Part shown: piece by piece, positions 7,273 to 63,530 of the stretch
How positions within the stretch are numbered: the stretch's first letter is position 1
Layout of the letters: each line of letters opens with the position of its first letter
Origin: Candidatus Melainabacteria bacterium
GTDB lineage: Bacteria > Cyanobacteriota > Vampirovibrionia > Gastranaerophilales > Gastranaerophilaceae
DNA length: 64,000 nt
NCBI GenBank assembly: GCA_003258735.1
Contig: QHME01000006.1
Location: forward strand, 22,518 to 86,517
Reading direction: 5' to 3'
Made by a program: the position numbers and the translations under genes
The notes under the pieces: generated by a model
Told to the model about the DNA's origin: nothing
Databases searched by the model: none
The model's input: the letters and a program-made list of their open reading frames with translations, nothing else

Positions 7273-7469
7273 TTAAAATTTTTCCTAATTCCCTTTAGAA
7301 TAAAACCACCAGACTTATTCTTAATAATTTTATTATGTGACAATAGTAGCATTTATTGCAACAAAATGCAATATGCAAAATCTTTTGAACCTTTATTTTA
7401 CTTATCTCTTGCTTTTTTTTATTATAGATATTATAATTAAAACAGTAAATTTAAAGGAAAAATAAAAGG

Positions 7470-45611: not shown

Positions 45612-46367
45612 ATGAAAAAACGAAATGGTGTAACACAAACACAGACTTTGTTAATCATGGGCATTGTTTTTTTATTTTTGTTTGCTTGTCTAGCTGTGCC
45701 TTTTTACAATTCTTATAAACAGAAAAAGGCTTTGTCTCACTTGATGAAAGTTTATGCAACCCTGATTCAGGCAAATAGAAATTATGCCTATGTCACTGGC
45801 TCTAATTTGGATGAATATGATACGACATTGCCGATTAACACGTTTGCGGAAACCTATTTTACGCCATATTTTGAAATTCAATCTTACTGCAAAGGTAGTC
45901 AAAGTGACTGTTGGGATTCCCCTCAATATACGGATTTGAAGAAAAATAAATTTTTTAATAAATCTTTGTATAGTATTATTTTGCCTGACAAAACAGTTAT
46001 TGGTTTTAGTAAAAATAAACAGCATTTAGTTACTGCAATTATTGATGTAGATGGCCCTGTAGGTGAAAATAAACTAGGTAAAGATGTTTTTGTAATGTAT
46101 TTTTATAACAATTTACAAAGACCGGATATTTGTGATAAAGAAGTTTATGAAAAATACAAAATCAAAAATGGTATACATTTAGGGGGATTTGATAAATGCG
46201 GAATTCCACAAGATGTGTATGATTACAATCAATTAAGCAGTAAAAATTTTGAAGATGGGTGTAATAAATCTTCTTCCAAAAATGTATATGGAAATGGTGT
46301 TGGTTCTGCTTGTCTAGCCTTTATAAAAGCATCCAATTGGACTATTGATAAAAAATACCCTTGGTAG
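45612..46367 (+). CDS. prepilin-type N-terminal domain protein, paralog of 40133..40837
   Basis: 251 aa. N-terminal hydrophobic prepilin-like segment TQTLLIMGIVFLFLFACLAV. The C-terminal GNGVGSACLAFIKASNWTIDKKYPW is shared with the other pilin-like gene. Confidence 0.6.
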   Translation: MKKRNGVTQTQTLLIMGIVFLFLFACLAVPFYNSYKQKKALSHLMKVYATLIQANRNYAYVTGSNLDEYDTTLPINTFAETYFTPYFEIQSYCKGSQSDCWDSPQYTDLKKNKFFNKSLYSIILPDKTVIGFSKNKQHLVTAIIDVDGPVGENKLGKDVFVMYFYNNLQRPDICDKEVYEKYKIKNGIHLGGFDKCGIPQDVYDYNQLSSKNFEDGCNKSSSKNVYGNGVGSACLAFIKASNWTIDKKYPW

Positions 46368-46407
46368 TATAATTGGCTTATTAAGACAGATTAGGGATTT
46401 TAGTAAG

Positions 46408-47406
46408 ATGAAAAAAAGTTTAAAAGCAATGGTAATGGCAGCTGGAATGGGGTCTCGATTAGAACCTTTGACCTTATCTGTACCAAAACCGCTTATTCCT
46501 GTAATGAATCAACCGTTGATGGATATTATTCTTACTCAGTTGAGTGAACTTGGGGTGAAAGATGTAATTTCTAACACTTATTATCTTGCTGATAAAATTA
46601 TTGAAAGATACCAAAAGAATAATCTAGGTGTTAATTTTAATTATATCAAAGAGACTGCTCTGTCAGGTACTGCCGGTGGAGTGAAGAAATGTCAAGATTT
46701 CTTTAATAAAGGGGAAGATTTCATTGTTATGTCAGGTGATATTTTGACAAACGCTGAAATTGAAGAAGGTATAAAAATTCATAAAGAATCCGGTGCAATT
46801 GCAACAATAGGTGTAAAACAAGTTCCACATGAACTGGTTTCTCACTTTGGAGTTGTTGTAACTGATGGAAATGGTTATATCAAAGAATTTCAAGAAAAAC
46901 CATCGCTTGCAGAGGCAAAAAGCAATTTAATTAATACAGGAATTTATATATTTAATTACAAAATTTTTGACTATATTCCTGAAAATACATTTTATGATTT
47001 TGCAAAAAATGTTTTCCCTCAATTGTTAAAAGATGGTCAGATTAATACTTTCGAGGTGAACGGTTATTGGAATGATATTGGAACAATAGAACAATACAAA
47101 CAATCTATGCAGGATATTTTTAATGGCAAATGCAAAATCAAGATGTCAAAAATTATTGAAACAAATTTAGGTTCTTATATAAAAGGAGATTCTAAAATTC
47201 CTTCAACTGTTAGATTTATGGGCAATTCTGTTATCGGTAACAATTGTAAGCTTGGTGAATATATTATGCTAGATAATTGCATTGTCTTAGATAATGCCGA
47301 AGTTCCAATGGGGACAGAGCTTTGCAATTGTATAATTATGCCAGCATCAATAGAGCTACAAAATCATCGTGCAAAAGTTCAAGATAAGAACATTATTACA
47401 GTATAA
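46408..47406 (+). CDS. sugar-1-phosphate nucleotidyltransferase with C-terminal left-handed beta-helix
   Basis: Start at the ATG 46408. MKKSLKAMVMAAGMGSRLEPLT matches the NTP_transferase G-x-G-T-R-L motif; the C-terminal third has hexapeptide repeats (NSVIGNNCKLGEYIMLDNCIVLDNAEV). Confidence 0.7.
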   Translation: MKKSLKAMVMAAGMGSRLEPLTLSVPKPLIPVMNQPLMDIILTQLSELGVKDVISNTYYLADKIIERYQKNNLGVNFNYIKETALSGTAGGVKKCQDFFNKGEDFIVMSGDILTNAEIEEGIKIHKESGAIATIGVKQVPHELVSHFGVVVTDGNGYIKEFQEKPSLAEAKSNLINTGIYIFNYKIFDYIPENTFYDFAKNVFPQLLKDGQINTFEVNGYWNDIGTIEQYKQSMQDIFNGKCKIKMSKIIETNLGSYIKGDSKIPSTVRFMGNSVIGNNCKLGEYIMLDNCIVLDNAEVPMGTELCNCIIMPASIELQNHRAKVQDKNIITV

Positions 47407-47467
47407 TTAAAAACTTGATTTTTTGAAATTTTGATGATAAATTTATTAAAGAAGTTATACCGTTGTT

Positions 47468-47539
<72 letters not shown>

Positions 47540-47546
47540 TTAAAAT

Positions 47547-47574
47547 AACCTCCAGTAATGGAGGTTATTTTTTT
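47547..47574 (+). terminator. rho-independent terminator of tRNA-Met
   Basis: AACCTCCA-GTAA-TGGAGGTT followed by ATTTTTTTTA. Confidence 0.8.
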
Positions 47575-47797
47575 ATTCAAAATCTGTCAATTTATTAAAT
47601 CCAACATCTAATGCATCAGCAATTGCAAATAATTTTTTAAGACTAATATTTTTCTGCCCATTTTCGACTCTTGTTATATATTCTCTTGATAAATCAACCA
47701 TTTCAGCGAGTTTCTCTTGAGAAATATTTTTAGACTTTCGATAATATGAAATGTTTTTACCTAATAATTTTAGTCTTGGTATGTGACCTATTTTGCC
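47574..47797 (-). pseudogene. N-terminally truncated XRE-family HTH regulator gene (integration scar next to tRNA-Met)
   Basis: Reverse-strand frame encodes ...GKNISYYRKSKNISQEKLAEMVDLSREYITRVENGQKNISLKKLFAIADALDVGFNKLTDFE*, a complete HTH_3 motif. The frame is bounded upstream by TAG at 47798..47800, with no ATG/GTG/TTG start before the HTH (the first ATG is internal, at 47701). Confidence 0.5.
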
Positions 47798-48074
47798 CTA
47801 AAGTTATAACCATGTCAGTGACCTATTTGTCCGAGTGGTAAATTTATATATTTTTGTTCATGATGGTTGGAATTTGGCAAAAGATTATCCTTGGTAGGAT
47901 TTTTAAGATTTTATAATGGCTGGGTGAATCTCTAAAATTTTAATAATGTAAAAAATACATTTATGTAGAGGCAAAATCAAATAACTTAGAATATTTTTGA
48001 TTTTGTGATGTTGAATTGTGCTAAGATATGAATGGGGAAATTTTTTTACTTTTTTATTAGAATGAGATTGCAAA

Positions 48075-49010
48075 ATGATAATCAATACAGGTTCAAGGAC
48101 AGATACAGTTCAATATTATTCAGATTGGCTTTTGAAAAGGTTTGAAGATGGTTTTGTTTATTCAAGAAATCCGATGTTTCCTAATAAGGTTACAAGGTAT
48201 GAATTAGACCCAAAAGTCCTTGATTGTGTTGTATTTTGTTCCAAAAATTATGAACCGATTTTAGATAGATTAACAGAAATTACGGATAAATTTAATACAT
48301 ATTTTCACTATACAATTACAGCCTATGGCAAGGATATAGAACCCAATGTCCCAACTATAGATGAAAGTATTGAAACACTAATCAAATTATCTAAAATTGT
48401 CGGCAAACAAAGGATTGCTTGGCGATATGACCCAATTCTTTTGACAGAAAAATATACTAAAAATGTACATTATGAAACTTTTGAGTATATAGCAGAAAGA
48501 CTTTCGCCTTACATTGATAGATGTATTTTTAGTTTCGTTGACATGTACAAAAAACTAAAAACAAATATGCCGGAAATTATTTTGTTGACTGACGCTGATA
48601 AAAATGAAATAGCAAAAAATATTGGAGTGATAGCGAAGAAACACAATATGATAATTCAAACTTGTGCAACAGTTGAAAATCTTGAACAATATGGGGTTTT
48701 GCAATCGGGTTGCATGACATCTGATATTTTGGGAAAGGCAAATGATATTACTTTTAAAAATTTAAGACATTCCGGCAACAGGCAAGGTTGTCGTTGTATG
48801 GAGAATCGGAATATTGGAGATTATGACACTTGTCCAAATGGTTGTAAGTATTGTTATGCCAATCAAAACCCACAAATAGCACAAGAAAACTATAAAAAAC
48901 ATAATCCAAATGATTTGATGATTTTAGGAAACCTTAAACCTACAGATGAAATCCAACAAAGCAACCAAAAATCTTTTTTAGAAAATAATGTGCAACAGAA
49001 ATTATTTTAA
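48075..49010 (+). CDS. DUF1848-like protein with C-terminal Cys cluster (C-x-C ... C-x3-C-x-Y-C-Y-A); possible Fe-S / radical-SAM-related enzyme
   Basis: 311 aa. C-terminal GNRQGCRCMENRNIGDYDTCPNGCKYCYANQNP resembles, as remembered, the DUF1848 / SPL-like CxxxCxYCY motif. No classical CxxxCxxC. Confidence 0.45.
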   Translation: MIINTGSRTDTVQYYSDWLLKRFEDGFVYSRNPMFPNKVTRYELDPKVLDCVVFCSKNYEPILDRLTEITDKFNTYFHYTITAYGKDIEPNVPTIDESIETLIKLSKIVGKQRIAWRYDPILLTEKYTKNVHYETFEYIAERLSPYIDRCIFSFVDMYKKLKTNMPEIILLTDADKNEIAKNIGVIAKKHNMIIQTCATVENLEQYGVLQSGCMTSDILGKANDITFKNLRHSGNRQGCRCMENRNIGDYDTCPNGCKYCYANQNPQIAQENYKKHNPNDLMILGNLKPTDEIQQSNQKSFLENNVQQKLF

Positions 49011-49132
49011 ACTTTATATCATTTTTTTGTTCGCTTTTTTTAACTTCATAAAATTGTTACAAGTTGCATATCCTTGCGTTTAAGTTTTAAATTTTTCATT
49101 ACCCACACATTACACACAAAAAATTTGCACTA

Positions 49133-49158
49133 AAAAAGAGACTTTTAAAAGTCTCTTT
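49133..49158. terminator. bidirectional terminator (perfect palindrome) between convergent genes
   Basis: AAAGAGACTTTT|AAAAGTCTCTTT palindrome flanked by A/T runs, between 48075..49010 (+) and 49262..50074 (-). Confidence 0.6.
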
Positions 49159-49261
49159 AAATGGTGGGGTTGAAGACGCAAGGTTCGAACTTTTTAAGAA
49201 GTATTGCGAACACTTGAATTATACCCCAGTTGCCCTAAAGATATGTAGGCTTATATCTTCA

Positions 49262-50074
49262 CTAGATATGGTAGCCCAAATATAAGATTTGCCTTAAACT
49301 TTCAACCATGTCATCAAGTATGTTTAATGTTTCAGAATTTGGCTGAACCAGAAGTTTATTGATATTTTCTTCAAAGTTATTAGGTAAAATCTGGCAATTA
49401 TCCTTTGCATATTTAACAAGCCTTTTTTCGCCCGGATGCAATAATTCATTTACTGCAAAGATAATATCAAAATAACTAGCCATAAAAGCAGAAATTCTAT
49501 GGTTAATACTGACAATATCGTTTCTGTTTATTGCTTTTTCTATTTGTTCATAATATGAAGCAAAAGGTTTATCTTTAAGCAACATCATATTTCTTTTTAT
49601 TATATTTTGTTTAAGTGCATTTGGATATTTTGTTTGTATTGAATCTTGTATAGTTTTAAGCCAATTATCCTCATCATAAATAATTTGAAAATTATTTAAA
49701 GTAAATAAAAATGCGGTTGTATAACCATTTGATGGATAATATTTAAACCAAGTATTCTCGACAATACTTTCAAACCAATTAACATTCCAGTACATAACAT
49801 CTAATTGACTATTTAATTTATCCACAAAAAATTCATCGCCTGAGCCAAAATACTCTCCACCAACTTCATATTTTGAGGAGTGTTGTTTTACGAGTTTTTC
49901 CCTGTTTTTAACTGCTATATCTTTTTCTACAAAAACGTAAACATCTATATCTGATAAATTATCAGAAGTATTGTTTGCTCCTGAGCCACCTAAAGCAACA
50001 GCTTTGACTTCAGGGAAATTTTTATATTCATCAATAATTTTATTAAAACATTCATTCATAACATCATTATACAT
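49262..50074 (-). CDS. Pol-beta superfamily nucleotidyltransferase (aminoglycoside/antibiotic adenylyltransferase-like or minimal NTase-like), unknown substrate
   Basis: 270 aa. N-terminal motif AVALGGSGANNTSDNLSDIDVYVFV fits the hG[GS]x(9-13)D.D NTase signature, with a C-terminal helical domain. Confidence 0.5.
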   Translation of the reverse strand: MYNDVMNECFNKIIDEYKNFPEVKAVALGGSGANNTSDNLSDIDVYVFVEKDIAVKNREKLVKQHSSKYEVGGEYFGSGDEFFVDKLNSQLDVMYWNVNWFESIVENTWFKYYPSNGYTTAFLFTLNNFQIIYDEDNWLKTIQDSIQTKYPNALKQNIIKRNMMLLKDKPFASYYEQIEKAINRNDIVSINHRISAFMASYFDIIFAVNELLHPGEKRLVKYAKDNCQILPNNFEENINKLLVQPNSETLNILDDMVESLRQILYLGYHI

Positions 50075-50557
50075 AAAAATCCTTAGATAGAACTAACAAA
50101 ATGTAAAAGTAGTCCCATAACAAGATATAATTAACTATGAGATGGAGATGAGTTATTCTATTAAAATTTAGTTTTAGCTATTCATATTTTTAATTTGTCG
50201 GATTTTGAACTCACTTTTATCAAGTTGTCTCATTTTCTCTTCTAAGTCCACAGTGAATATTAATGTAAACGAACACATGAAATGATTTCTTGTAACACTT
50301 GGTTTGATTATTTAGGGCAAAATTAATAAAAAAATATCAAATTTTAGAGAATAAATAAAAAGAAAAATTTATATTTTGCTTTTTATTTTATAATTATTTG
50401 TATTTTGAATAATTATATAATTTCCTAAAATTGTATTATGATTGATACACGACAAGTGTTTGTATAAGAAGACAAAAAGTAACACACAATCCTTAAAAAT
50501 TTACAATAACAAAAATTTAATATTATCATGTTAAAATGTATTGTAAGGAGTGATTAG

Positions 50558-53500
50558 GTGATTAATACAAAAGATCCAACTTCATTTATTCGCAATTTCT
50601 TAGTTAGTAGTGACATAGACTTTTTTCTTGGCTCTGGTGCATCTTTATTAGCGGGTATTCCGAGCGGACAAAATCTAGTTTGGCAATTTAAAAAAGAAAT
50701 TTATTGTTCTGAAAATAATGTTTCCAGAGAACTATTTAAAGATCTGCAATCTGAACGAAATAGAACTAAATTACAGGATTACTTTGACTCTTTAGATGGA
50801 TTCCCCAAAAGGGGTTCAAAAGAAGAATATTCGTTTTATTTTGAAAAATGTTATGATAATACTTCTGCAAGAAATGCATATATTCAAAAGCTCGTTGCAA
50901 ATGTTGAGCCCATAAGAGGACATCTTTGTCTTGCTAATTTGTTTATTAATAATCAAGTCAAAAACATCTGGACAACAAACTTTGATGAGTTAATTGAGGT
51001 AGGCATTAAAACATTATCACCTCAATATTCATTTAATGTTGTGTCTTCAATACAGAAAGAGAGTATCTCTCAAATAGCCAATAACAATTTTCAAAATGTC
51101 ATAAAATTGCATGGTGATTATAGATATGATTCCCTACAAAATACAGAACAGGAATTACAGAATTTAGAAAGCCAATTATCAGATTTATTTTGCAAGAATT
51201 TAATGAATAAAGGACTCATTGTTATAGGTTATGCAGGAAATGATGACTCTGTAATGAAAGTTCTTGAGGATAATATAGATAATAAAGATTTTTTGAGTAA
51301 AGGAATATATTGGTGCAAGCCACAAAATACAACATTATCTGAACGGGCAAATGCTTTTATGGAAATGGCTTGTCAAAACAATGAGCTGTCTTGTGTAATT
51401 GATATTGATGGTTTTGATGAATTTTTAAATTTGATATACCGAAATTATGAGCATAAAAATCCTATAATTGATGAAAGATGGAAGGATTTTGATAATAGAA
51501 AAAAAGAAATTAATTTTTCTTCAGATAAAATAGCTCAAAGTTCATTAAAAATGAACACCTTTGTCTCAACAGAATTACCTTCTTGCAATGTATTTGAAAC
51601 AGATATAAAAAATTGGAAAGAACTACGAACAATAATAGGTGGAAACAACGATATAATCGCAGGATTATTTAATGGAAAAGTATATTCTTTTTCTAATAGT
51701 GATAAACTAAAAGAAATATTTAAAGGGCATATAAACTCAGAAATCACAACAGTATTTCCTGAAACCGAATTATTAAATAAAGAGAATTTCATATATTTAG
51801 GACTGCTTTATGAATTAATAAAAATCTCATTATTGCAAAATTCAAATATAAAATCTTTTGGAAGAAATAAATACTACTTTGTAGATTCTATATTAGACCA
51901 TCAGAATAAAGCTCGTTTCACATACAAAAGATACTCTGCTTTTGAAGTTCAGTTGTCGTATTTAAATGAAAAAATTTACCTATCTATAATACCAACTATT
52001 TATTTAACTAATAAAAATGGTAGTGAAGTCAATAAATTATACAAACAAGTTGAAATAAATAGCATAATGTCAAGCATATATAATGCTGATTATGGTAAGA
52101 TTCTAAAAGATTTAAATGCATTTCTTTGGATAAAAGGTAGTAATGAAATTATATTCACAAATAGTGATTTTTCTATAAAATTTAATTTTGTATGTTTTTC
52201 ATACAAATTATTATCAGGTTCAAAATATCCACAGATATCTTCTTTTAAATTTGACGAACCTGAAATGTTATTTGATGTTAATGATATAAATCATACAAGC
52301 ATAAATCAGTTAAAAGGTTTGCAAAGGTATGCACCTATTGATTATTCTTTTGAAACTGCCGAAAAATCGCCTATTAGAATTGCTATTTTGTCTCCAAATC
52401 AACAAATAGATAATATTATAGGACATTTAAATAATCTTAATGTAAAACATTCTGCTAATACTAAAGAAATGTTTTTGCCGAATTATGAAGGATTTTATGA
52501 AATCTATAAAAGAGCTATAAATATACCTGATAAAAACAATACGCAATTATGCAGAATGTACGATGAAACTGCAACTTCCAAAGCAAACACAGCATCTTTT
52601 GTCGATAGCATAAAATCTCAAATAGATTATTTTCAAACTCAATTATCAGATTTTGATGTTTTAGTTGTATATATACCAAAATCATTTGCAAAATTCAGAG
52701 AAGATAGTGGATATGATCCCGATTTTAATTTGCACGATGCTATAAAACTATATGGAACCAATAAAGGTGTAAAAATTCAATTTATAGAGGAACGCTCTCT
52801 AACTGCTTATGATAAATGCAAAGTAATGTGGGATTTATCCACCAGTTTATATGCAAAAGCATCTGGTGTTTTGTGGCATCCCGTCGTTTTGGATGATGAG
52901 ACTGCTTTTGTTGGAATTAGTTATGCAAAATCTAACACAAAAGGTATATGTATAGGTTGTAGCCAATTATTTGATTCAACAGGAACCGGAATAAGATTAA
53001 TATTGAAAAAATTAGACGATCCTCAATACATTGGTAAAAACCCATATATGAAGCAAGACGAAGCAAGAATAACAATAAGCAAATTAAGAGAAGAGTACTA
53101 TAAATGCGATCCTGTTGGGAAGTTAAGAAGAATTGTTATACACAAAACTACTCCATTTACAGATCAAGAAATTGCCGGTTTTACCGAAGCCTTAGAAGGG
53201 ATTGAAGATATAGAATTATTACAAATTCAAGGATATTCCCCATATAGAGCCATAAAATATTTTATACAGGATGGAAAACCATACCCCAACAGTTTCCCTA
53301 TTGAGAGAGGCACTACAATAAAATTATCTAACGATAGCTTCTTACTTTGGACACATGGTTGTGTTACTGGTAACGACATAGGGAGGAATTGCAAATACAA
53401 TTCATACTATAAGGGCAGTAGAGGTATACCAATCCCTGTTTTAGTTAAAAGGTTTTATGGCAAAGCATCAGGAGATATTCTAGTAAAAGAAATTCTAATG

Positions 53501-53644
53501 CTAACTAAAATGAATTGGAATAGTGGCGATAATCTGTATAAAAATATGCCCGTAACACTAGACTTTGCAAAGACACTTTCGAGGATGTCTAAACAAAAAG
53601 AAGCACTATATAATAAATCGTACGACTTTAGATATTTTATGTAA
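50558..53644 (+). CDS. fused SIR2-APAZ-MID-PIWI protein: short prokaryotic Argonaute with N-terminal SIR2 (NADase) effector, SPARSA-like single-chain system
   Basis: 1028 aa; GTG start with an AAGGAG RBS 6 nt upstream. N-terminal SIR2_2 motifs: FFLGSGASLLAGIPSG, IWTTNFDELIE, VIKLHGDYRYD, IVIGYAGNDD. C-terminal PIWI-like blocks: DVLVVYIPK, NLHDAIKLYGTNKGVKIQFI, VMWDLSTSLYAKASGVLWH, FVGISYAK, RIVIHKTTPF, GTTIKLSNDSFLLWTHGC, GIPIPVLVKRFYGKASGDILVKEILMLTKMNWNS, PVTLDFAKTL. Catalytic Asp positions are replaced (GISYAK, IVIHKT), so the PIWI is inactive, as in short pAgos. The intervening ~400 aa (about residues 300-700) were not examined for domain content. Confidence 0.8.
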   Translation: MINTKDPTSFIRNFLVSSDIDFFLGSGASLLAGIPSGQNLVWQFKKEIYCSENNVSRELFKDLQSERNRTKLQDYFDSLDGFPKRGSKEEYSFYFEKCYDNTSARNAYIQKLVANVEPIRGHLCLANLFINNQVKNIWTTNFDELIEVGIKTLSPQYSFNVVSSIQKESISQIANNNFQNVIKLHGDYRYDSLQNTEQELQNLESQLSDLFCKNLMNKGLIVIGYAGNDDSVMKVLEDNIDNKDFLSKGIYWCKPQNTTLSERANAFMEMACQNNELSCVIDIDGFDEFLNLIYRNYEHKNPIIDERWKDFDNRKKEINFSSDKIAQSSLKMNTFVSTELPSCNVFETDIKNWKELRTIIGGNNDIIAGLFNGKVYSFSNSDKLKEIFKGHINSEITTVFPETELLNKENFIYLGLLYELIKISLLQNSNIKSFGRNKYYFVDSILDHQNKARFTYKRYSAFEVQLSYLNEKIYLSIIPTIYLTNKNGSEVNKLYKQVEINSIMSSIYNADYGKILKDLNAFLWIKGSNEIIFTNSDFSIKFNFVCFSYKLLSGSKYPQISSFKFDEPEMLFDVNDINHTSINQLKGLQRYAPIDYSFETAEKSPIRIAILSPNQQIDNIIGHLNNLNVKHSANTKEMFLPNYEGFYEIYKRAINIPDKNNTQLCRMYDETATSKANTASFVDSIKSQIDYFQTQLSDFDVLVVYIPKSFAKFREDSGYDPDFNLHDAIKLYGTNKGVKIQFIEERSLTAYDKCKVMWDLSTSLYAKASGVLWHPVVLDDETAFVGISYAKSNTKGICIGCSQLFDSTGTGIRLILKKLDDPQYIGKNPYMKQDEARITISKLREEYYKCDPVGKLRRIVIHKTTPFTDQEIAGFTEALEGIEDIELLQIQGYSPYRAIKYFIQDGKPYPNSFPIERGTTIKLSNDSFLLWTHGCVTGNDIGRNCKYNSYYKGSRGIPIPVLVKRFYGKASGDILVKEILMLTKMNWNSGDNLYKNMPVTLDFAKTLSRMSKQKEALYNKSYDFRYFM

Positions 53645-53756
53645 ATATCTTCCTCTGCTTTGTCATACATATGTGCAATAATCAAATTATATCAGGTTTG
53701 TTACACAACGATATATTACGTATTTTCATGCTAATATAGAAGGAAAAGGGATTAAA

Positions 53757-55484
53757 ATGAGTTTAAGTGCAAATGTAAATGAAAAAGCCAATTTGATTTG
53801 GGCAATAGCGGACAAATTAACAGGGGTCTATAAGCCTCACGAATATGGAAAAGTTATTTTACCTTTAACTGTAATAAGAAGATTTGACTGCATTTTAGCA
53901 GATACAAAACAAGCAGTATTAGATAAGCATAATTCTATGGCTGAAGATTTTCCGATGCGCGAACAATTTTTAAAGAAAACATCAGGTTATGAGTTTTATA
54001 ATACAAGCAAATACACATTTGAAAGTTTATTAGATGATGCAAACAATATAGAAGCAAACTTCAAAAATTATTTAAACGGTTTTTCTGCAAATGTTAGACA
54101 AATTATAGATAAATTTGAGTTCAATAATGAAATAACAAAACTTGCAGATAAAAACTTACTTTACATAGTTATTCAAGAATTTACGACTCCAAAGGCAGAT
54201 TTACACCCGAATAAAATTTCTAATCTCGAAATGGGTTATATCTTTGAAGAAATTATTCGTAGATTTTCAGAAGCACATAATGAAGATGCCGGACAGCACT
54301 ATACTCCAAGAGAAGTTATTGAACTCATGGTAAATATCTTGTTTACTAATGATAATGACATTTTGACAAATAATGTAGCTAAAACCATTTATGACCCTGC
54401 TTGTGGTACTGGTGGTATGTTATCTGTTGCAGAAGATTATTTGAAAAAGTTAAACAGTTCTGCAACGTTGTTACCGTTCGGACAGGAAATTAATGACGAA
54501 ACCTTTGCTATTTGTAAAGCAGATATGCTTATTAAAGGAAATGATGCAGACAAAATCAGAAACGGCAATACTTTATCAGATGATAATTTTAAAGGTGAAA
54601 CTTTTGATTATATCCTTTCAAATCCGCCATTTGGCAGAGAATGGAAGAACGATAAAAAAGCTGTTGAAGATGAAGCTAAATTAGGAGCGGGTGGCAGATT
54701 TGGTGCAGGGCTTCCGGCAGTTGGTGACGGTCAAATGCTATTCCTGCAAACTGCTATTGCAAAGATGAAAGACAGTTCACAAGGTGGAAGTAAAATTGCT
54801 ATTATTCATAATGGCTCACCATTATTTACAGGTGATGCAGGCTCAGGTCCGTCTGAAATAAGAAAGTATATTCTTGAACACGATATGCTTGAAGCAATTA
54901 TTGCTCTACCCAATGATATTTTCTACAATACGGGTATTGCAACATATATTTGGGTATTATCAAACAAGAAAGAAAAACGCAGAAAAGGTAAGGTTCAACT
55001 GATTAACGCAAACGGTATGTTTGAAAAACGTAGAAAATCACTTGGGAACAAGAGAAATGACATACCAAAACATTATATTGATGAGATTACTCAAATTTAT
55101 GCTGATTTTACAGAGAATGAAGTAAGTAAAATCTTTGATAATGAAGATTTTGGGTATTCTAAGATTGTTGTCGAAAGACCTGAAAAAGACGAAAACGGTA
55201 ATCCTGTATTAAAAGGCGGTAAGCCTGTCCCTAATACAAACTTGCGTGATACTGAAAATGTACCGCTTAAAGAAGATATTGGCGAATATTTTAAAAGGGA
55301 AGTTTTACCATATGCACCAGATGCATGGATAGAAGAAAAGAAAACAAAAGTTGGTTATGAAATACCTTTTACAAGGTATTTTTATAAATATGTACCGCCA
55401 AAACCGTCAGAAGATATTATGAATGAAATAAAAGAACTTGAAAAATCTCTTGACGGAGTATTAGAGGGAATATTTAATGACTGA
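53757..55484 (+). CDS. hsdM: type I restriction-modification system methyltransferase subunit HsdM
   Basis: 575 aa. N-terminal HsdM_N (LWAIADKLTGVYKPHEYGKVILPLTVIRRFD), motif I DPACGTGGML and motif IV NPPFG. Confidence 0.9.
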   Translation: MSLSANVNEKANLIWAIADKLTGVYKPHEYGKVILPLTVIRRFDCILADTKQAVLDKHNSMAEDFPMREQFLKKTSGYEFYNTSKYTFESLLDDANNIEANFKNYLNGFSANVRQIIDKFEFNNEITKLADKNLLYIVIQEFTTPKADLHPNKISNLEMGYIFEEIIRRFSEAHNEDAGQHYTPREVIELMVNILFTNDNDILTNNVAKTIYDPACGTGGMLSVAEDYLKKLNSSATLLPFGQEINDETFAICKADMLIKGNDADKIRNGNTLSDDNFKGETFDYILSNPPFGREWKNDKKAVEDEAKLGAGGRFGAGLPAVGDGQMLFLQTAIAKMKDSSQGGSKIAIIHNGSPLFTGDAGSGPSEIRKYILEHDMLEAIIALPNDIFYNTGIATYIWVLSNKKEKRRKGKVQLINANGMFEKRRKSLGNKRNDIPKHYIDEITQIYADFTENEVSKIFDNEDFGYSKIVVERPEKDENGNPVLKGGKPVPNTNLRDTENVPLKEDIGEYFKREVLPYAPDAWIEEKKTKVGYEIPFTRYFYKYVPPKPSEDIMNEIKELEKSLDGVLEGIFND

Positions 55485-56481
55485 TAAAGGCAACAAAGGT
55501 GAAATTGTTATATATAAAAATGAGAATGGAAACATTTCATTTGAAGCGAAGTTAGAAGATGAAACAATTTGGCTAACTCAGGATATGATGGCTAAATTGT
55601 TTGAAACTACTTCTCAAAATATTACTATGCACATAAAAAATATTTATGAGGAAGAGGAGTTAGAACAAATTTCAACTTGTAAGGATTTCTTACAAGTTCG
55701 AAAAGAAGGTAAGAGAGCGGTTTCCCGTAAACTTGCTTTCTATAATCTTGATATGATACTTTCTGTCGGTTATAGAATTAAATCTAAAACGGCTACACAG
55801 TTTCGTAAATGGGCGACAACTGTTTTAAAAGAATATATGACAAAAGGTTATGCAATAAATGAACATAAACTAAAACAGGAACAAGACAAGGTTAAAACTC
55901 TGCAAGATACGATAAAACTTCTTTCAAGGAGTTTAGAATATCAGGTTCAATCCTTAGACGAAGCAAAAGATGTTGCAAAACTTATGGATAATTTTGCAGG
56001 TGGACTTGATTTATTGGATAATTACGACCACAAAAAACTTGATTCTAAAGGAGTTACAACAAAAGAAGCAGTAAAAATTGAAGAACAGGAGTTTTTGACT
56101 GTTATTGATAAAATGAAATCCGAGTTTGCATCAGACGTTTTCGCAACTCCAAAGGATGAGAGTTTTTCAAGTTCGGTTAATCAGATTTATCAAACCTTTG
56201 ACGGAAAAGAGCTTTATCCGACATTAGAAGAAAAAGCCGCAACGCTTTTATATCTGATAGTAAAAAATCACAGTTTCGCAGACGGTAACAAACGTATCGG
56301 TGCAAGTTGTTTCTTGTATTTCTTGAATAGAAACAATATGCTCTACAGAAACGATAAACCGATAATAGATAATTCAACCTTGTTTGCTCTGACACTCTTG
56401 ATAGCAACATCAAAACCTGAAGAAATGGAAACAGTAAAACAGATTGTTTTGAGTATTCTGAATAGAGGAGGGGAACGGTAA
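55477..56481 (+). CDS. RhuM-family / Doc-Fic (death-on-curing-like) fusion protein embedded in the hsd operon
   Basis: 334 aa; start overlaps the hsdM stop (ATGACTGA). The N-terminal region resembles RhuM proteins commonly found between hsdM and hsdS. The C-terminal HSFADGNKRIGAS matches the Doc/Fic H-x-F-x-D-G-N-K-R motif. Confidence 0.65.
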   Translation: MTDKGNKGEIVIYKNENGNISFEAKLEDETIWLTQDMMAKLFETTSQNITMHIKNIYEEEELEQISTCKDFLQVRKEGKRAVSRKLAFYNLDMILSVGYRIKSKTATQFRKWATTVLKEYMTKGYAINEHKLKQEQDKVKTLQDTIKLLSRSLEYQVQSLDEAKDVAKLMDNFAGGLDLLDNYDHKKLDSKGVTTKEAVKIEEQEFLTVIDKMKSEFASDVFATPKDESFSSSVNQIYQTFDGKELYPTLEEKAATLLYLIVKNHSFADGNKRIGASCFLYFLNRNNMLYRNDKPIIDNSTLFALTLLIATSKPEEMETVKQIVLSILNRGGER

Positions 56482-57807
56482 ATGTTTACAATAGAAGATC
56501 TAATAGAAAAAATATATGAACCAAAAACAAAAGAATTATTTAGAGATGTTTATACGTCTTATACTCAAGGACAGTATAGAGCCACTGTTGTTATGCTTTG
56601 GACAGTTGTAATTTGTGATTTTATATATAAACTGCAATATTTAAAAGACATTTATAATGATGCAACAGCAATCGACATATTAGAAAAAATAGCGGATAAA
56701 CAGAAAAAAAATCCTAAAAACCCAGAATGGGAGAATTTCCTTATTGATACAATTTTTGAAAGAACAAATTTTATAGATGAAATAGAAAAAGAAAATTTAA
56801 ACTATTTACAAAAACAGCGTAATTTATGTGCACACCCGATTATTACAAATGAAAATATTTTATTTAAACCGACAAAAGAACTAACACGCTCCCTAATAAG
56901 AATAGCATTGGATTCGGTACTGTTAAAATCAACATTATTATCAAAAAGGTATGTTGATACTATATTAGAAGATTTGGAAAAAAGAATTGATGACTTTTTC
57001 CCTTGGGATGATAATTTTGAGAGGTATTGTCAAAATAGGTATTTGAATCATTTAAATAAAAATCAAATCTTGAAGCTATTTAAATTATTATGGAGGATGA
57101 CTTTCTCTCCACATAATGATAGAGAAGAACAAAACTCATTTACAAATTTACAACTATTAAAATTTATATTCAAAAAATATAAATCACAATGTATTGATTA
57201 TATGAGACAAGATATTGAAGCGTACTCATATGATAAATCTAATAACAAGGCAAAGGAATATTTTAATGGCTTTATAATCGAAAATTATAACATGTATTCA
57301 CATTTATCTGAACAAACAAAAGCATTATTTGAATCTGAAATTAGACAATTCCCTAGTGACATGCCATATTTCTTTATTTCGCAAAAAACTTTTGAAGAAT
57401 ACTTAAGAGGGTTAAATGAAGAATTTAACAATCGTTTAGAAACTATCGGAAAACATTCAATTTGGCTTCCCGCAATTAATTTACGTAATCAAGCAAAAGA
57501 GAGAGAATTAGAAAATATGCTTTATAGCATGTATATTAATTGGTATGCAAGTAGTATTAACTATAATGAGGCAGATATATTATTTGATGAGTTAATAAAG
57601 AACAACCTTAAAGAATTTTCATTGGAACAAATTATAGAACTCATAAAATTTTCTTCAAAAAATAGTCAGACATATAATAGGGGGAAGGCAACACAAGACC
57701 ATAAATATATTATCCAAAGATATCTTAAATTAGATGGTGATTATGATAATATTCATAATACCCCATTTGAAGATTTATATATTGAATTAGGGGGGTGTCC
57801 ATTTTAA
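56482..57807 (+). CDS. HEPN-like (R-x4-H motif) Abi-like protein embedded in the hsd operon, uncharacterised
   Basis: 441 aa. The ATG immediately follows the upstream TAA, and its own stop overlaps the hsdS ATG (TAATG). R-x4-H motif in QRNLCAHP around residue 115; no P-loop; predicted alpha-helical. Confidence 0.4.
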   Translation: MFTIEDLIEKIYEPKTKELFRDVYTSYTQGQYRATVVMLWTVVICDFIYKLQYLKDIYNDATAIDILEKIADKQKKNPKNPEWENFLIDTIFERTNFIDEIEKENLNYLQKQRNLCAHPIITNENILFKPTKELTRSLIRIALDSVLLKSTLLSKRYVDTILEDLEKRIDDFFPWDDNFERYCQNRYLNHLNKNQILKLFKLLWRMTFSPHNDREEQNSFTNLQLLKFIFKKYKSQCIDYMRQDIEAYSYDKSNNKAKEYFNGFIIENYNMYSHLSEQTKALFESEIRQFPSDMPYFFISQKTFEEYLRGLNEEFNNRLETIGKHSIWLPAINLRNQAKERELENMLYSMYINWYASSINYNEADILFDELIKNNLKEFSLEQIIELIKFSSKNSQTYNRGKATQDHKYIIQRYLKLDGDYDNIHNTPFEDLYIELGGCPF

Positions 57808-59120
57808 TGCTACAAAGTGAAACTGTTAAAAAATACGATACATATAAAGATAGTGGGATTGAGTGGATTGGTGAAATCCCGCAAGAATGGACAGTTGGTA
57901 ATTTAAAAAGGTTAACCGATTTTATAAAGAACGGTACCTCCGCTACACAAGTTGAGAATGAAACAGAATATAAAGTTAGCCGAATTGAAACCATATCAAC
58001 TGGAGAAATAAATTATTCTAAGACTGGATATGTACAGTATTTTGATAATATTGATGATTATAAACTGAATAGCAATGACATATTGTTCTCTAATATAAAT
58101 AGTCTCGAGATGGTAGGAAATGTTGCAATTTATGATAATAAAGAATCATTGTATAGTGGAATGAATTTATTGAGAATCTCTGTAAATAAAAACTGTTGTC
58201 CAAAATGGTTATTTTATGTTCTCAAAAATTCATATTTTAAAGAACAAGTGAAAGCAAATGCAAAGCACGCAATTAATCAAGTAAGTATTAGTGTTGGTAG
58301 GTTATCTCAAATACCTATTATTATTCCGATAAAAGACGAACAACAGCAGATTGCGGATTATTTGGATAAAAAGTGTGGGGAGATTGATAAGGTTGTTGAA
58401 ACGGAAAAGTCGGTTATTGAAAAGTTAAAAGAGTATAAGCAATCAATAATTACCGAAGCCGTAACAAAAGGTTTAGACAAATCCGTTCCATTAAAAGATA
58501 GCGGTATAGAATGGATAGGCAAAATCCCTCAACATTGGGATGTTTGTAAATTGTTAAAATTATACAAAGAAAGAAAATGTAAAAATAAAGGGAATATAGA
58601 AACAAATGTATTGTCGTTAAGTTATGGTAATATTAAAAAACGTAATGTTAAAAATAATATGGGCTTGTTGCCAGAAAGCTTTGAAACATATAACATTATT
58701 ATTCCAAATAATATTGTTTTACGACTTACGGATTTACAAAATGATCATAAGAGTTTAAGATGTGGTCTTGTAAAAGAACAAGGTATTATTACTTCTGCAT
58801 ATGTAACATTAGAAAAAAAGATTGATAGAATATCATCTAATTACTATTACAGACTGCTTTATACTTTTGACATAATGAAAGGCTTTTACGGAATGGGAGA
58901 TGGAGTAAGACAAAATTTGAAGTATGACGGAGAACTTTGTAATTTACTAGTTGTTAAACCTCCTTTTGAAGAACAACAGCAAATTGCGAAATATCTTGAT
59001 AATAAATGTTCTGAAATAGACAAAGCGATAGCAGATAAGGAACAAGTTATAGAAAAATTCACCGAATACAAAAAATCCCTAATCTACGAATGCGTAACAG
59101 GCAAAAGAAAGGTAGTTTAA
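57807..59120 (+). CDS. hsdS: type I restriction-modification specificity subunit HsdS (two target-recognition domains)
   Basis: The two halves share conserved repeats (EQQQIADYLDKKCGEIDKVVETEKSVIEKLKEYKQSIITEAVTKG and EQQQIAKYLDNKCSEIDKAIADKEQVIEKFTEYKKSLIYECVTGK), and each TRD starts with SGIEWIG.IPQ.W. Start taken at the ATG 57807 (coupled); GTG 57795 is the alternative. Confidence 0.85.
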   Translation: MLQSETVKKYDTYKDSGIEWIGEIPQEWTVGNLKRLTDFIKNGTSATQVENETEYKVSRIETISTGEINYSKTGYVQYFDNIDDYKLNSNDILFSNINSLEMVGNVAIYDNKESLYSGMNLLRISVNKNCCPKWLFYVLKNSYFKEQVKANAKHAINQVSISVGRLSQIPIIIPIKDEQQQIADYLDKKCGEIDKVVETEKSVIEKLKEYKQSIITEAVTKGLDKSVPLKDSGIEWIGKIPQHWDVCKLLKLYKERKCKNKGNIETNVLSLSYGNIKKRNVKNNMGLLPESFETYNIIIPNNIVLRLTDLQNDHKSLRCGLVKEQGIITSAYVTLEKKIDRISSNYYYRLLYTFDIMKGFYGMGDGVRQNLKYDGELCNLLVVKPPFEEQQQIAKYLDNKCSEIDKAIADKEQVIEKFTEYKKSLIYECVTGKRKVV

Positions 59121-59122
59121 TT

Positions 59123-59566
59123 ATGAATATTATTGAATTTATGAAAAATTTAGATGCAAAAATATTGTGTGCAATAATTGCATTAATAAGTTCTATTATT
59201 GGTACTATCTTGGGAGCTTTTCTAACATTTATTTTTAACATATTAAATGAAATTATCAAAAGAAATAGAGACCATATTGTACACATAAAAGATGTAAAGG
59301 AAAATATTTATCAAAAATGCTGTGAATTGCTAGATAAAGTTACCCTACTCGACAAAAACAATGTTATAAATAATACTGAGTACTATGAAAGAATGGTTGA
59401 TAATTTTATTTCAATATCTGTTCAAATGAAACTGTTTACCCCAAGACATATATTTGAAAAATTTGCGGAATTAGTAAAAGAATTTAGTGATAATAAAGAT
59501 ATTTCAAAAGAAAAAGAAAAAGATTTTATTAATATATTAAGAAAAGATTTAAAAATAGAGGAATAA
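59123..59566 (+). CDS. small membrane-anchored protein embedded between hsdS and hsdR, unknown
   Basis: About 147 aa from the ATG 59123. One N-terminal TM helix (ILCAIIALISSIIGTILGAFLTFIF), then a charged helical domain. Its stop abuts the hsdR ATG. Confidence 0.4.
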   Translation: MNIIEFMKNLDAKILCAIIALISSIIGTILGAFLTFIFNILNEIIKRNRDHIVHIKDVKENIYQKCCELLDKVTLLDKNNVINNTEYYERMVDNFISISVQMKLFTPRHIFEKFAELVKEFSDNKDISKEKEKDFINILRKDLKIEE

Positions 59567-62500: not shown

Positions 62501-62575
62501 GCAGACAAACTTAAATTTATAAAAGAATTGTTATTGGCAGATGTTTATAACGAATTAAGAAACAAGGGAATATAA
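59570..62575 (+). CDS. hsdR: type I restriction enzyme R subunit HsdR
   Basis: 1001 aa. N-terminal HsdR_N nuclease region; SF2 helicase motif I QHSAGSGKSNSIAW and motif II VIVDEAHSSQ; C-terminal helical domain. Confidence 0.9.
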   Translation: MQDTLLKEKNFEEAIENYLITEGGYEKGIPEHLNRASALDEDTFINFIKTTQPTEWEKHTRNYPNNPEQALLRRFQEEVSATNLLQVLRHGFKDRGVKFYPCYFKPETTMNPEHNKKYSQNILHCTRQMKFSLLDERSIDIVLLLNGIPVVSMELKNQFTGQDVSNAISQYKFDRATKDKMFEFKQRVLVHFAVDLYDVYMTTRLQGTSTYFLPFNQGSNGAGNVGGKGNPQIEDDYLTSYLWKRVLKKDSLMEILQKYMHLKVEDIKDKDGKITGKKETMIFPRYHQLDVVTKLLEDVKENGSGKNYLIQHSAGSGKSNSIAWLAHRLQSLHDKNDEVIFNSVIVVTDRKILDSQLQDTIYQFDHIDGVVRPITKGSESLKTALNDGAKIIITTLQKFPYIYQDVQATGKRYAVIVDEAHSSQSGTAAKKLKVALGDTEEVLEQYAREEAEEESKMEDYEDNLVKELSTHGMHKNISFFAFTATPKNKTLQLFGEKQENGTYRPFHIYSMRQAIEEGFILDVLQNYTTYRQYYKIAKKIEGDPEYDKAKGARAVSRFESLHPHNIAQKTAIIIEHFREVTKNKIDGKAKAMVVTASRLHAVRYLFEFRRYIQEHNYTDLDVLVAFSGSIEDEGQEWTEEKINKTKDGEVIKENQLKKYFHDEFDMLIVAEKYQTGFDEPLLHTMFVDKKLNSVKAVQTLSRLNRTTRGKEDTFVLDFANTQEEIQRAFQPFYEATVLEDETDPNLIYTLKRQLDDFHVYQEREVEEFAKKFYQKTIPTLSILSPILKPAVERYEALEDKQKDEFKSLIHGFNRSYSFITQICRMFDKDMQKLYVFTKYLTKLLPIDNSEKINLEDALLLEYYKLQKTAEGNITLEKTEGVVPGIKGGARSGSKEKEKGSLSEILDKFNKKFGTTFTEQDKVLAQLKADMMKNEQMANSAKSGDKTAFKTLYDKQFNDIAINRYEENDSFFKGLFENADKLKFIKELLLADVYNELRNKGI

Positions 62576-62576: not shown

Positions 62577-63530
62577 AATGTATAAACCACCATTTGAAAT
62601 TACATCAAAAATAATTGAACTTATTTCCAATATTTCGGGAAAAATTGGAGAAATTAATTATCTTCAAAATAACCCCTATCATATGCAATAGCGAAAAGAA
62701 AACTGAATTAAAACTATTCATTCTTCGCTTGCTATTGAAAACAACAGTTTGAGCCTAAAGCAAATTACAGCAATAAGTGAAGGTAAACACGTACTTGGAA
62801 ATCCTAATGAGATTAAGGAAGTAAAGAATTCTATTAGGGCTTATGATTTGCTTTTATCACTTAAGCCATATAATGAAAAAGACTTACTAAAAGCTCACAA
62901 ACTTATGATGCAAGATTTAGTTGATAGAAATGGCAAATACAGAACATACGGAGTTGGAATATTTGACGGAGAAAAAGTTGTTCATCTTGCACCTTCTGCG
63001 GATAGAGTTCCGGAACTATGTTTAATTTGTTCAAATGGCAAAAAGAAAGCGATGCACATCCGCTTATTAAAAGCTGTGTTTCTCATTACGAATTTGAAAT
63101 TATTCACCCATTTCAAGACGAAAATGGCAGAATGGGGCGTTTGTGGCAGACTGTAATTTTAAAAGAATGGAAAGAAATATTTGCTTGGCTTTCTGTTGAA
63201 ACATTAATTAAAGAAAATCAGAAAGAATATTATAATGTTCTTGGGGCAAGTGACAGTGATGCAAATAGCACCAAATTTATAGAATTTATGCTTTCTTTAA
63301 TCTTGAATACAATAGAAGAAATTATTGAAACAGAAAAAAGGTTTACTGTAAATCAACAAAAAATTATTGATGCAATAAAAGACAATCCGTATGTTACACA
63401 AGAAGAACTTGCTGATATTGTTGGAATTGCAAGAAAAAATATAATTGCAAATATGAAAAAACTCCAAACAAACGGATTAATAAAACGTGTTGGTGCCGAT
63501 AAAAATGGTCATTGGCTTGTTGAAGACTAA
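62577..63530 (+). pseudogene. Fic-family (FIC domain, HPFx[DE]GNGR) gene, degraded
   Basis: The N-terminal frame MYKPPFEITSKIIELISNISGKIGEINYLQNNPYHMQ contains in-frame TAG and TGA stops within the conserved LRKEN.IKTIHSSLAIENNSL region. A frameshift splits ORFs 62749..63156 and 63018..63530. The Fic motif EIIHPFQDENGRMGRLW is present in the last frame. Confidence 0.65.

Follow-up and report, generated by a model that had tools for sequence, protein, structure and literature searches.

The window analyzed here is a 64,000-nucleotide stretch of a gut Melainabacteria (Gastranaerophilales) genome, and on its forward strand lies a complete gene whose product joins SIR2, APAZ, MID, and PIWI regions in one chain (Table 1). 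A preliminary description of this DNA had reported the open reading frame (ORF) and its SIR2_2 motif set. Both the exact coordinates and all the motifs that it quoted were recovered, namely, GSGAS (residues 25 to 29), GIPS (33 to 36), TTNFDELIE (139 to 147), KLHGD (183 to 187), and GYAGNDD (224 to 230), along with GISYAK (786 to 791) and IVIHKT (859 to 864) from the PIWI region. The GTG start is credible: a Shine-Dalgarno sequence, AAGGAG, is found 7 nt 5' of it, an ATG occupies the same alignment column in two relatives (L002 and L004), and in the PDB search residue 9 aligns with residue 8 of GsSir2, a subunit of the Sir2/Ago system of Geobacter sulfurreducens. The reading frame is uninterrupted, dN/dS values of 0.08 to 0.12 against seven relatives indicate purifying selection, and an identical protein (P0001) is present in public data.

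TABLE 1 Features of the single-chain gene and its surroundings, in window coordinates
Feature	Residues	Position	Strand	Remarks
tRNA-Met		47467-47540		3 kb from the gene
Upstream DNA travelling with the gene in relatives		50474..50557	+	GTAACAC box; TTTACA 50500-50505; TGtTAAAAT 50529-50537 (extended -10-like); AAGGAG 50545-50550
Single-chain SIR2-APAZ-MID-PIWI gene, complete	1028 aa	50558..53644	+	GTG start; TAA stop 53642-53644
SIR2 (SIR2_2) NADase domain	~1-300	50558..51457	+	PF13289 and GsSir2 match; activity inferred from homologues
APAZ region (like N/L1/L2 of long Argonautes)	~325-545	51530..52192	+	Boundaries approximate
Junction, joining point of proteins separate in split systems	~546-565	52193..52252	+	Lower-confidence linker in model
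MID domain, HK-type 5'-phosphate pocket	~566-775	52253..52882	+	GsAgo alignment; MID/PIWI boundary approximate
PIWI domain, catalytically inactive (predicted)	~776-1028	52883..53641	+	GsAgo/short-pAgo match

Upstream of the gene, a gap of 483 bp (50075 to 50557; 22% GC), free of ORFs of at least 40 aa, separates two divergently oriented genes. The gap had been described as a long, AT-rich untranslated leader of about 480 bp; its length and composition are as described, but a leader of that extent is not supported. Comparison of relatives by blastn and by a MAFFT alignment of ten upstream regions showed that only about 85 to 100 bp upstream of the gene are shared, the near-identical locus L054 excepted, with blastn homology beginning at 50464 to 50474 in L001, L002, L003, L035, and L042 and at 50544 in L004, L005, and L007. 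We also discarded the idea of a leader acting as an RNA element, as an Rfam search at an E-value of ≤1 over 47000 to 54000 returned the tRNA and subthreshold noise overlapping it and nothing in the gap. The shared segment holds a putative promoter and the ribosome-binding site. The top-listed promoter-like match (50500 to 50529) is one of four scoring 10/12, and no more than about 30 nt separate the site from the start codon. The upstream genes encode a DUF1848 protein and a nucleotidyltransferase-DUF4037 protein; these were rejected as partners, being found beside 0 of 77 related loci.

Downstream lies a type I restriction-modification (R-M) operon, whose genes start 113 bp past the stop codon, with 112 bp between that codon and hsdM, and with embedded genes identified as PD-T7-3 and RhuM-Fic (also given as PDC-S23 and PD-T7-3). 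The gene therefore sits in a defense island beside a type I R-M system, as the preliminary description had proposed. Its suggested association with tRNA-Met, however, comes down to proximity. The tRNA 3' end is not repeated in the window (up to 3 mismatches allowed), the search for long direct or inverted repeats between 47400 and 64000 gave nothing convincing, and none of the scanned ORFs encodes an integrase; hence, we rejected an integrative island at this tRNA.

Could the protein and the R-M operon form one co-transcribed and functionally coupled unit? No terminator-like hairpin was found in the short stretch between the stop codon and hsdM, and R-M genes follow directly 3' both in the window and in L002, L003, L005, L007, and L054. 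We nevertheless regard such coupling as very improbable. The gene downstream is again an R-M or defense gene in the relatives, but its identity varies among type I R-M, an N6/N4 methylase, and PD-T7-3, and unrelated defense genes usually cluster in defense islands in any case. Moreover, blastn homology among relatives does not reach further than about 90 bp 3' of the stop codon, hsdM has a promoter-like motif of its own (53727 to 53738), and the literature on short prokaryotic Argonautes (pAgos) names no protein, beyond the APAZ partner, that is specifically associated (PMC9097488).

The N-terminal domain, of the IPR039444 type, was detected by Pfam as SIR2_2 (PF13289; residues 136 to 258; E-value, 3.4e-14), and residues 9 to 308 match residues 8 to 309 of GsSir2 (E-value, 1.6e-42). 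Residues G25 to G37 form the SIR2 cofactor loop. N141, H185, and D229 align with N142, H186, and D230 of GsSir2, which are required for NADase activity and defense (bioRxiv 10.1101/2021.12.14.472599), and are invariant across 37 homologues; the catalytic Asn and His singled out in the preliminary description are thus in place, together with the Asp. Other positions have changed. The NAD-contact residues S227 and R229 of GsSir2 correspond to A226 and N228, and Y168 and Q192 of the Sir2-Sir2 interface correspond to K167 and D191; hence, details of NAD binding and oligomerization may differ from those of GsSir2. Because the peptide-substrate site is blocked in GsSir2, deacetylase activity is unlikely in this SIR2-Ago family.

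Two PADLOC profiles of the SIR2-APAZ type extend from the SIR2 domain into the APAZ region (PDLC02419, residues 18 to 458; PDLC02401, residues 40 to 442), and a full-length profile covers the remainder. In the AlphaFold (AF2) model, residues 329 to 543 adopt a beta-rich fold with a pLDDT mostly above 85, and the pLDDT drops to 73 and 61 in the blocks spanning residues 541 to 560. The comparison with split systems places the junction in the same area: residues 566 to 1028 align with residues 15 to 473 of GsAgo, the match to split relatives of about 470 to 490 aa begins at residues 560 to 580, and that to split SIR2-APAZ proteins of about 575 to 590 aa ends between residues ~390 and 520. By the GsAgo alignment, the part beyond the junction consists of MID and PIWI alone, and Pfam gives no PAZ match.

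In the MID domain, H726 aligns with H166 of GsAgo, and H726, K730, Q741, and K767 are invariant in the 37 homologues. From their spacing and the established Argonaute MID motif, we take these four residues to be the H-K-Q-K motif, so that the 5'-phosphate pocket, which the preliminary description had marked for checking, appears to be preserved. MID motifs of the HK type are those found in Sir2/Ago systems (bioRxiv 10.1101/2021.12.14.472599). GsAgo reads the 5'-AU end of its guide through F158, D164, and R190; the corresponding residues here are R714, N724, and A750, of which R714 is itself invariant in the family. Because of these replacements, the guide-end preference may differ from that of GsAgo.

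In the PIWI domain, the tip of the sensor-loop equivalent (residues 820 to 832) is conserved, N828 and Y830 corresponding to N272 and Y274 of GsAgo, as are the metal ligand (N988, corresponding to N434) and the C-terminal methionine (M1028, corresponding to M473). In an hhalign comparison with TtAgo, whose probability was only 20 to 34% but in which the motifs agree, D546 and D660 correspond to T864 and K1005. Asp and Glu are absent throughout residues 782 to 797, where the equivalent of D478 must fall, and the equivalent of the glutamate finger, E512, has no confident placement. Three of the four catalytic positions are thus nonacidic, which suffices to predict that the domain is dead as a nuclease, in line with the earlier reading of the sequence.

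Matches over the whole protein agree with these assignments. The best PADLOC model is that for the fused protein (PDLC02420; residues 6 to 1028 against profile positions 5 to 1010 of 1010), with 1201 bits versus 378 bits for the top stand-alone pAgo model; another pAgo profile, PDLC02384, matches over the full length with 683 bits. Among PDB sequences, the two halves match one Gs subunit each, GsAgo with an E-value of 6.1e-62 and GsSir2-APAZ with the value given above. Together with the SIR2_2 and PDLC02420 scores, these E-values put the domain calls far beyond chance. The AF2 model (pLDDT, 85.5; pTM, 0.85) superposes on both Gs subunits, with TM scores of 0.86 to 0.88 against GsAgo chains and of 0.72 to 0.73, over 592 to 599 columns, against the GsSir2-APAZ chains 8jl0_A and 8jkz_A. 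The top Foldseek matches are short pAgos, and no solved single-chain SIR2-APAZ-pAgo structure is among the 50 PDB matches listed. Profiles, solved homologues, the model, and the residue comparisons thus bear out the proposal of a SIR2-APAZ-MID-PIWI order in one chain, with an N terminus that is SIR2_2 by PF13289 and a C terminus that is PIWI-like by its match to GsAgo.

One might still suspect a decaying or nonimmune gene, such as a SIR2 deacetylase or regulator, or two adjacent genes that an assembly or frameshift mistake has merged. Pfam detects SIR2_2 alone, with no Piwi or PAZ match in the protein even at an E-value of ≤1, NCBIfam gives no match to it, and public records name its relatives "SIR2 family protein" or "NAD-dependent SIR2 family protein deacetylase." This reading is close to refuted, and we give it hardly any credence. 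The selected, intact ORF and the invariance of all functional residues speak against decay, and the blocked peptide-substrate site of GsSir2 speaks against a deacetylase. The fusion is not an error, since clustering at 50% identity gives at least 38 clusters that contain full-length fusions of about 950 to 1160 aa in a single stretch and dozens of genomes yield a full-length match. Dozens of the matches listed are full-length homologues of about 1003 to 1031 aa, and the fusion is kept in full-length homologues down to 26 to 30% identity. Because Pfam detects SIR2 alone and NCBIfam nothing, the public records appear to be mislabelled.

The preliminary description had presented the single chain as a departure from the usual two proteins. 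One chain it is, but an unusual one it is not: a fused SIR2-APAZ-pAgo is the defining feature of clade S1A, or SPARSA-A (PMC9097488), a family named and tested in 2022 (Zaremba et al. 2022; Koopal et al. 2022). As judged by its fused architecture and PADLOC profile, the gene is an ordinary member of this clade. Two such fusions have been tested. PgSir2-Ago of Paraburkholderia graminis gives about 400- to 500-fold phage protection and showed interference with none of four plasmids (bioRxiv 10.1101/2021.12.14.472599), and JomSIR2-APAZ-pAgo of Joostella marina reduces NAD in E. coli (PMC9097488). The protein described here has the same domain order in a single ~1000-aa chain, conserved SIR2 residues, an HK-type MID domain, and a PIWI domain predicted to be dead; it differs in its host lineage. 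Since PgSir2-Ago was inactive against four plasmids, the target range cannot be transferred from the tested fusions. The nearest relatives outside the host lineage are found in gut Clostridia and Bacteroidales, with about 40 to 51% identity. Carriage of the fused gene on mobile elements was considered and rejected, as tblastn detected only split two-gene relatives (about 30% identity) in plasmids and only partial SIR2 or SIR2-APAZ matches in phages, never the whole fused protein.

GsSir2/Ago, a SPARSA system of clade S1B, is the structurally characterized relative (PDB accession numbers 8in8, 8jkz, 8jl0, 8k87, 8k88, 8y7z, 8y80, and 8y82). Its two subunits are collinear with the two halves of the single chain, with which they share the catalytic Asn, His, and Asp, the MID histidine, the sensor residues, the metal ligand, and the C-terminal Met. 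It differs in consisting of two polypeptides from overlapping genes, in an identity of only about 22 to 30%, and in its 5'-AU readers and some NAD-contact and tetramer-interface residues. SPARTA (TIR-APAZ plus short pAgo; clade S2A) and SPARDA/SPARHA (nuclease-APAZ plus short pAgo) share the MID-PIWI fold (TM score, 0.73 to 0.83) and the logic by which guide-directed target binding activates an APAZ-linked effector. They are two-protein systems with a TIR or nuclease effector rather than SIR2, and their sequence similarity is confined to PIWI/MID (E-values of 1e-8 to 1e-25). SPARDA-type DUF4365-APAZ systems belong to clade S2B. The long-B pAgo RsAgo, with its inactive PIWI domain, superposes on APAZ, MID, and PIWI over 828 to 851 aligned columns, which fits the equivalence of APAZ with N/L1/L2; unlike RsAgo, with which it shares 12 to 13% identity, our protein lacks PAZ and begins with a SIR2 effector domain.

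We consider it highly probable that the gene encodes a functional clade S1A abortive-infection protein of a gut Melainabacteria bacterium, directed at phages or plasmids, that works by a mechanism like that of GsSir2/Ago. The MID-PIWI half would load a short 5'-phosphorylated guide, most likely an RNA derived from transcripts. [quoted passage not shown] APAZ and MID-PIWI would clamp the duplex of the guide with complementary single-stranded DNA of an invader, which the PIWI domain would be unable to cut. The sensor loop, with N828 and Y830, would sense the formation of the duplex and trigger oligomerization, which in turn would bring H185 of the SIR2 domain into line with N141, and the resulting hydrolysis of NAD+ would stop or kill the infected cell. 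Of this scheme, the present analysis shows the architecture, the fold, the conserved residues named, the loss of nuclease residues, purifying selection, and the defense-island setting; the types of guide and target, oligomerization, and NAD+ depletion are inferred from homologues.

A member of the same family could also work in a materially different way, with DNA guides, with another or no 5'-end preference, or with a different active oligomer owing to the tethering of the two halves. PgSir2-Ago behaves unlike split systems in plasmid assays (bioRxiv 10.1101/2021.12.14.472599). The replaced 5'-AU readers with the invariant R714, the changed Sir2-Sir2 interface, and the lack of a single-chain structure among the Foldseek matches point in the same direction. 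We find such a departure improbable: conservation extends to the pocket, the sensor-loop tip, the metal ligand, the C terminus, and the catalytic residues of SIR2, and both Gs subunits can be superposed on the model. Specificity differences of a few residues are normal among Argonaute orthologues. A related reading, in which the single-chain branch of gut Melainabacteria and Clostridia selects its guides differently and perhaps activates the NADase via a different oligomer, is somewhat less doubtful, though still unlikely; if true, it would represent a new mechanistic variant within SPARSA.

A GsSir2/Ago-like mechanism in clade S1A, which we favor, alters no concept and will not surprise specialists. 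Its main value lies in correct annotation, in that labels such as "SIR2 family" and "deacetylase" would conceal a complete Argonaute-based abortive-infection system. A text search of the literature returned no paper mentioning both Melainabacteria and Argonaute, and with this gene the hosts of clade S1A come to include a nonphotosynthetic gut relative of the cyanobacteria (Melainabacteria/Gastranaerophilales). The gene appears to move between the defense islands of gut bacteria as a compact cassette that comprises the ORF and a putative promoter of about 100 bp.

SIR2-Ago belongs by its architecture to clade S1A (SPARSA-A) of the short prokaryotic Argonautes (pAgos), and every defining feature of the clade that we examined is present. 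The preliminary description had read a single-chain SIR2-APAZ-MID-PIWI protein off the raw sequence, and this identity is correct. The PADLOC profile for the whole fused protein, PDLC02420, aligns with residues 6 to 1028 over positions 5 to 1010 of 1010 (1201 bits), and stand-alone pAgo profiles span residues 562 to 1028. In a sequence search of the PDB, residues 9 to 308 matched the Sir2-APAZ subunit (E-value, 1.6e-42) and residues 566 to 1028 the Ago subunit (E-value, 6.1e-62) of the two-subunit Geobacter sulfurreducens SPARSA complex (GsSir2/Ago), while PIWI matches to SPARTA, SPARDA, and SPARHA Argonautes were weaker. SIR2_2 (residues 136 to 258; E-value, 3.4e-14) was the one domain that Pfam detected, Piwi and PAZ both being absent, and an NCBIfam search returned no match. 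Confidence in the AlphaFold2 model, which was computed from an alignment of 37 homologues, is high (mean pLDDT, 85.5; pTM, 0.85) but lower in a linker at about residues 541 to 560. Comparison with the PDB by Foldseek (target-normalized TM values) confirmed the resemblance to GsSir2/Ago that had been proposed for checking: TM was 0.86 to 0.88 for GsAgo chains (480 to 488 aligned columns), 0.72 to 0.73 for whole GsSir2-APAZ chains (592 to 599 columns), and 0.62 to 0.63 for the long Argonaute RsAgo (828 to 851 columns). Profile, PDB, and model matches therefore give the layout SIR2 (about residues 1 to 300), APAZ (about 325 to 545), a junction, MID (about 566 to 775), and PIWI (about 776 to 1028).

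Residues were mapped by HMMER alignment onto published GsSir2/GsAgo positions. The SIR2 catalytic Asn and His, singled out earlier for inspection, are retained as N141 and H185 (GsSir2 N142 and H186), together with D229 (D230); in GsSir2, defense depends on these three residues, as does the hydrolysis or binding of NAD+. Also conserved are MID H726, metal ligand N988, the C-terminal M1028, and the sensor-loop tip N828/Y830 (GsAgo H166, N434, M473, and N272/Y274, respectively), and the H-K-Q-K 5'-phosphate pocket of MID (H726, K730, Q741, K767) is invariant across a 37-sequence alignment. Not conserved are the 5'-AU readers F158, D164, and R190 of GsAgo (R714, N724, and A750 in SIR2-Ago), the NAD contacts S227 and R229 of GsSir2 (A226 and N228), and the Sir2-Sir2 interface residues Y168 and Q192 (K167 and D191). 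To check the nuclease site, we aligned TtAgo from pTT27 (D478/E512/D546/D660 verified) to the SIR2-Ago family profile. D546 pairs with T864 (IVIHKTT) and D660 with K1005; the D478 strand corresponds to VGISYA, with no acidic residue in residues 782 to 797, and E512 received no placement from this alignment. Because of T864, K1005, and the missing acid, the PIWI domain is predicted to be inactive as a nuclease, which bears out the dead PIWI domain claimed earlier and agrees with the nuclease-inactive PIWI of all short pAgos.

The fusion had been taken as a departure from the usual two-protein form. This view does not hold, since fused SIR2-APAZ-pAgo is the definition of clade S1A, "SIR2-APAZ-pAgo fusions (SPARSA-A)" (Koopal et al. 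2022, PMC9097488), a classification repeated in a 2024 review, and is widespread. Roughly one short pAgo in two either has an associated Sir2-APAZ or is fused to one (Zaremba et al. 2022, bioRxiv 10.1101/2021.12.14.472599). A library clustered at 50% identity yielded 312 representatives at an E-value of ≤1e-30; of the best 150, at least 38 are single-stretch full-length fusions of about 950 to 1160 residues, with identities to SIR2-Ago reaching down to 26 to 30%; split pAgo (about 470 to 490 residues) and split SIR2-APAZ (about 575 to 590 residues) accompany them. Fused chains represent an old and widespread architecture, and these representatives led us to reject an assembly artifact as the origin of the fusion.

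The coordinates and all motifs quoted for the open reading frame (ORF) were confirmed. Its GTG start is well supported because of the spacing of AAGGAG (7 nt upstream), the ATG that occupies the start column of the upstream-region alignment in two relatives (L002 and L004), and the N-terminal alignment, in which residue 9 pairs with GsSir2 residue 8. An identical protein, P0001, already exists in public metagenome data, and the best 120 homologues are full-length (about 1003 to 1031 residues, one of 1101), bar a few truncated entries. Against seven relatives with 77 to 95% protein identity, dN/dS is 0.08 to 0.12.

Features of the window around the SIR2-Ago gene
Feature	Position	Strand	Remarks
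Very long ORF	23399-29056	+	1885 aa, TTG start; no Pfam match at E≤0.001
Hexapeptide-repeat nucleotidyltransferase gene	46345-47406		just 5' of tRNA-Met
tRNA-Met	47467-47540	+	
XRE/HTH_3-type ORF	about 47573-47795	-	about 73 aa, directly after tRNA-Met; Pfam HTH_3, E 5e-17
DUF1848	48075-49010	+	Pfam, E 1e-96; PADLOC RTasDUF1848 (DRT-associated), E 3e-40
Pol-beta-type nucleotidyltransferase + DUF4037	49262-50074	-	divergent from SIR2-Ago; no PADLOC or NCBIfam match
Upstream gap	50075-50557		483 bp, 22% GC
Extended -10-like TGtTAAAAT	50529-50537		
Shine-Dalgarno AAGGAG	50545-50550		
SIR2-Ago	50558-53644	+	GTG start, 1028 codons
hsdM	53757-55484	+	
RhuM + Fic/Doc	55477-56481	+	PADLOC PDC-S23, E 2e-127
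PD-T7-3 homologue	56482-57807	+	E 1e-119
hsdS	57795-59120	+	
158-aa ORF	59090-59566	+	no match in Pfam, PADLOC, or NCBIfam
hsdR	59570-62575	+	
Disrupted SoFic-like Fic adenylyltransferase gene	62749-63530	+	overlapping ORFs in different frames, 62749-63156 and 63018-63530

The closest genomic copies lie in gut metagenome-assembled genomes (MAGs) of Candidatus Melainabacteria/Gastranaerophilales (77 to 99% identity; CP091731.1, locus L054, nearest), followed at about 40 to 51% by gut and rumen Clostridia (Oscillospiraceae, Lachnospiraceae), Bacteroidales, and one Treponema. Nucleotide homology with the Gastranaerophilales relatives is limited to the ORF plus about 85 bp upstream and about 90 bp downstream (about 50474-53733); near-identical L054 alone extends it, to 50261-56494. 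This confinement to the ORF and short flanks therefore marks the gene as one that travels as a compact cassette. No whole fused SIR2-Ago was found in plasmid or phage collections, where the matches were limited to distant split systems and to parts of the protein (SIR2 or SIR2-APAZ). In CP091731.1 (a long-read MAG chromosome; 3588-8515), the SIR2-Ago ORF is broken despite 99% amino acid identity and hsdM is divided over two frames, probably through homopolymer assembly errors rather than as real pseudogenes.

A roughly 480-bp untranslated leader, as originally proposed, is unsupported: the gap lies between divergent genes, about 85 bp of it is shared (L054 excepted), and Rfam found nothing in it. 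The shared DNA contains one or two GTAACAC-like boxes, TTTACA, the extended -10-like element, and the Shine-Dalgarno sequence, and a 5' untranslated region of about 15 to 30 nt appears most likely. The top-listed match of a consensus promoter scan (50500-50529) is one of four at 10/12, and promoter-like matches overall are no commoner than in shuffled sequence. In a comparison of the window with L001 to L007 and L042, the DNA preceding hsdM (53690-53740; GTTACAC...TCATGCTAATAT, 53727-53738) resembles that preceding SIR2-Ago (50474-50540; GTAACAC box or boxes, then TCATGnTAnnAT), and these Gastranaerophilales defense genes may have a common extended -10 promoter type or operator.

The proposed defense island beside a type I restriction-modification (R-M) system is supported by the hsdM/S/R operon, which begins after 112 bp containing no terminator-like hairpin, by PDC-S23 and PD-T7-3, and by the relatives, where the 3' gene is again a defense gene: L002 and L054 have type I R-M there, L003, L005, and L007 an N6/N4 methylase, and L004 a PD-T7-3 homologue (54% identity). 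The RhuM-Fic/Doc and PD-T7-3 genes are interposed between hsdM and hsdS. As for the suggested link to tRNA-Met, the proximity stands and the association does not, as no integrase was found among the ORFs scanned and no att-like repeat within the window, which stops before any right island boundary; GC content right of tRNA-Met is slightly lower (29.7% versus 32.4%). The XRE-type ORF has no ATG, GTG, or TTG upstream of its HTH, and its sole canonical start gives a truncated 42 residues; translation may begin at a rare start codon, or the ORF may be a pseudogene. No reverse transcriptase gene adjoins DUF1848, and the DUF1848 and nucleotidyltransferase-DUF4037 genes recur in none of 77 related loci. 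In the SoFic-like gene, likely a frameshift or pseudogene, the second ORF alone matches, covering the C-terminal half of SoFic.

The architecture, fold, conserved residues, dead nuclease site, selection, and context are seen directly in SIR2-Ago, and the SPARSA mechanism of GsSir2/Ago is the best-supported reading; we infer every biochemical step from homologues. The protein would load a small 5'-phosphorylated guide RNA, which would pair with invader single-stranded DNA. Sensing of the duplex would lead to oligomerization and bring H185 of SIR2 into line with N141, and the ensuing NAD+ depletion would abort the infection. Among tested fusions, that of Joostella marina lowers NAD in E. coli (Koopal et al. 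2022, PMC9097488), and PgSir2-Ago of Paraburkholderia graminis protects about 400- to 500-fold against two phages (Zaremba et al. 2022, bioRxiv 10.1101/2021.12.14.472599). The 50 PDB structural matches listed by Foldseek include no single-chain S1A structure. By current knowledge SIR2-Ago is an ordinary find, and the host lineage is its sole, mildly new element. Given the specificity residues that differ, a modest mechanistic variant of SPARSA is conceivable.
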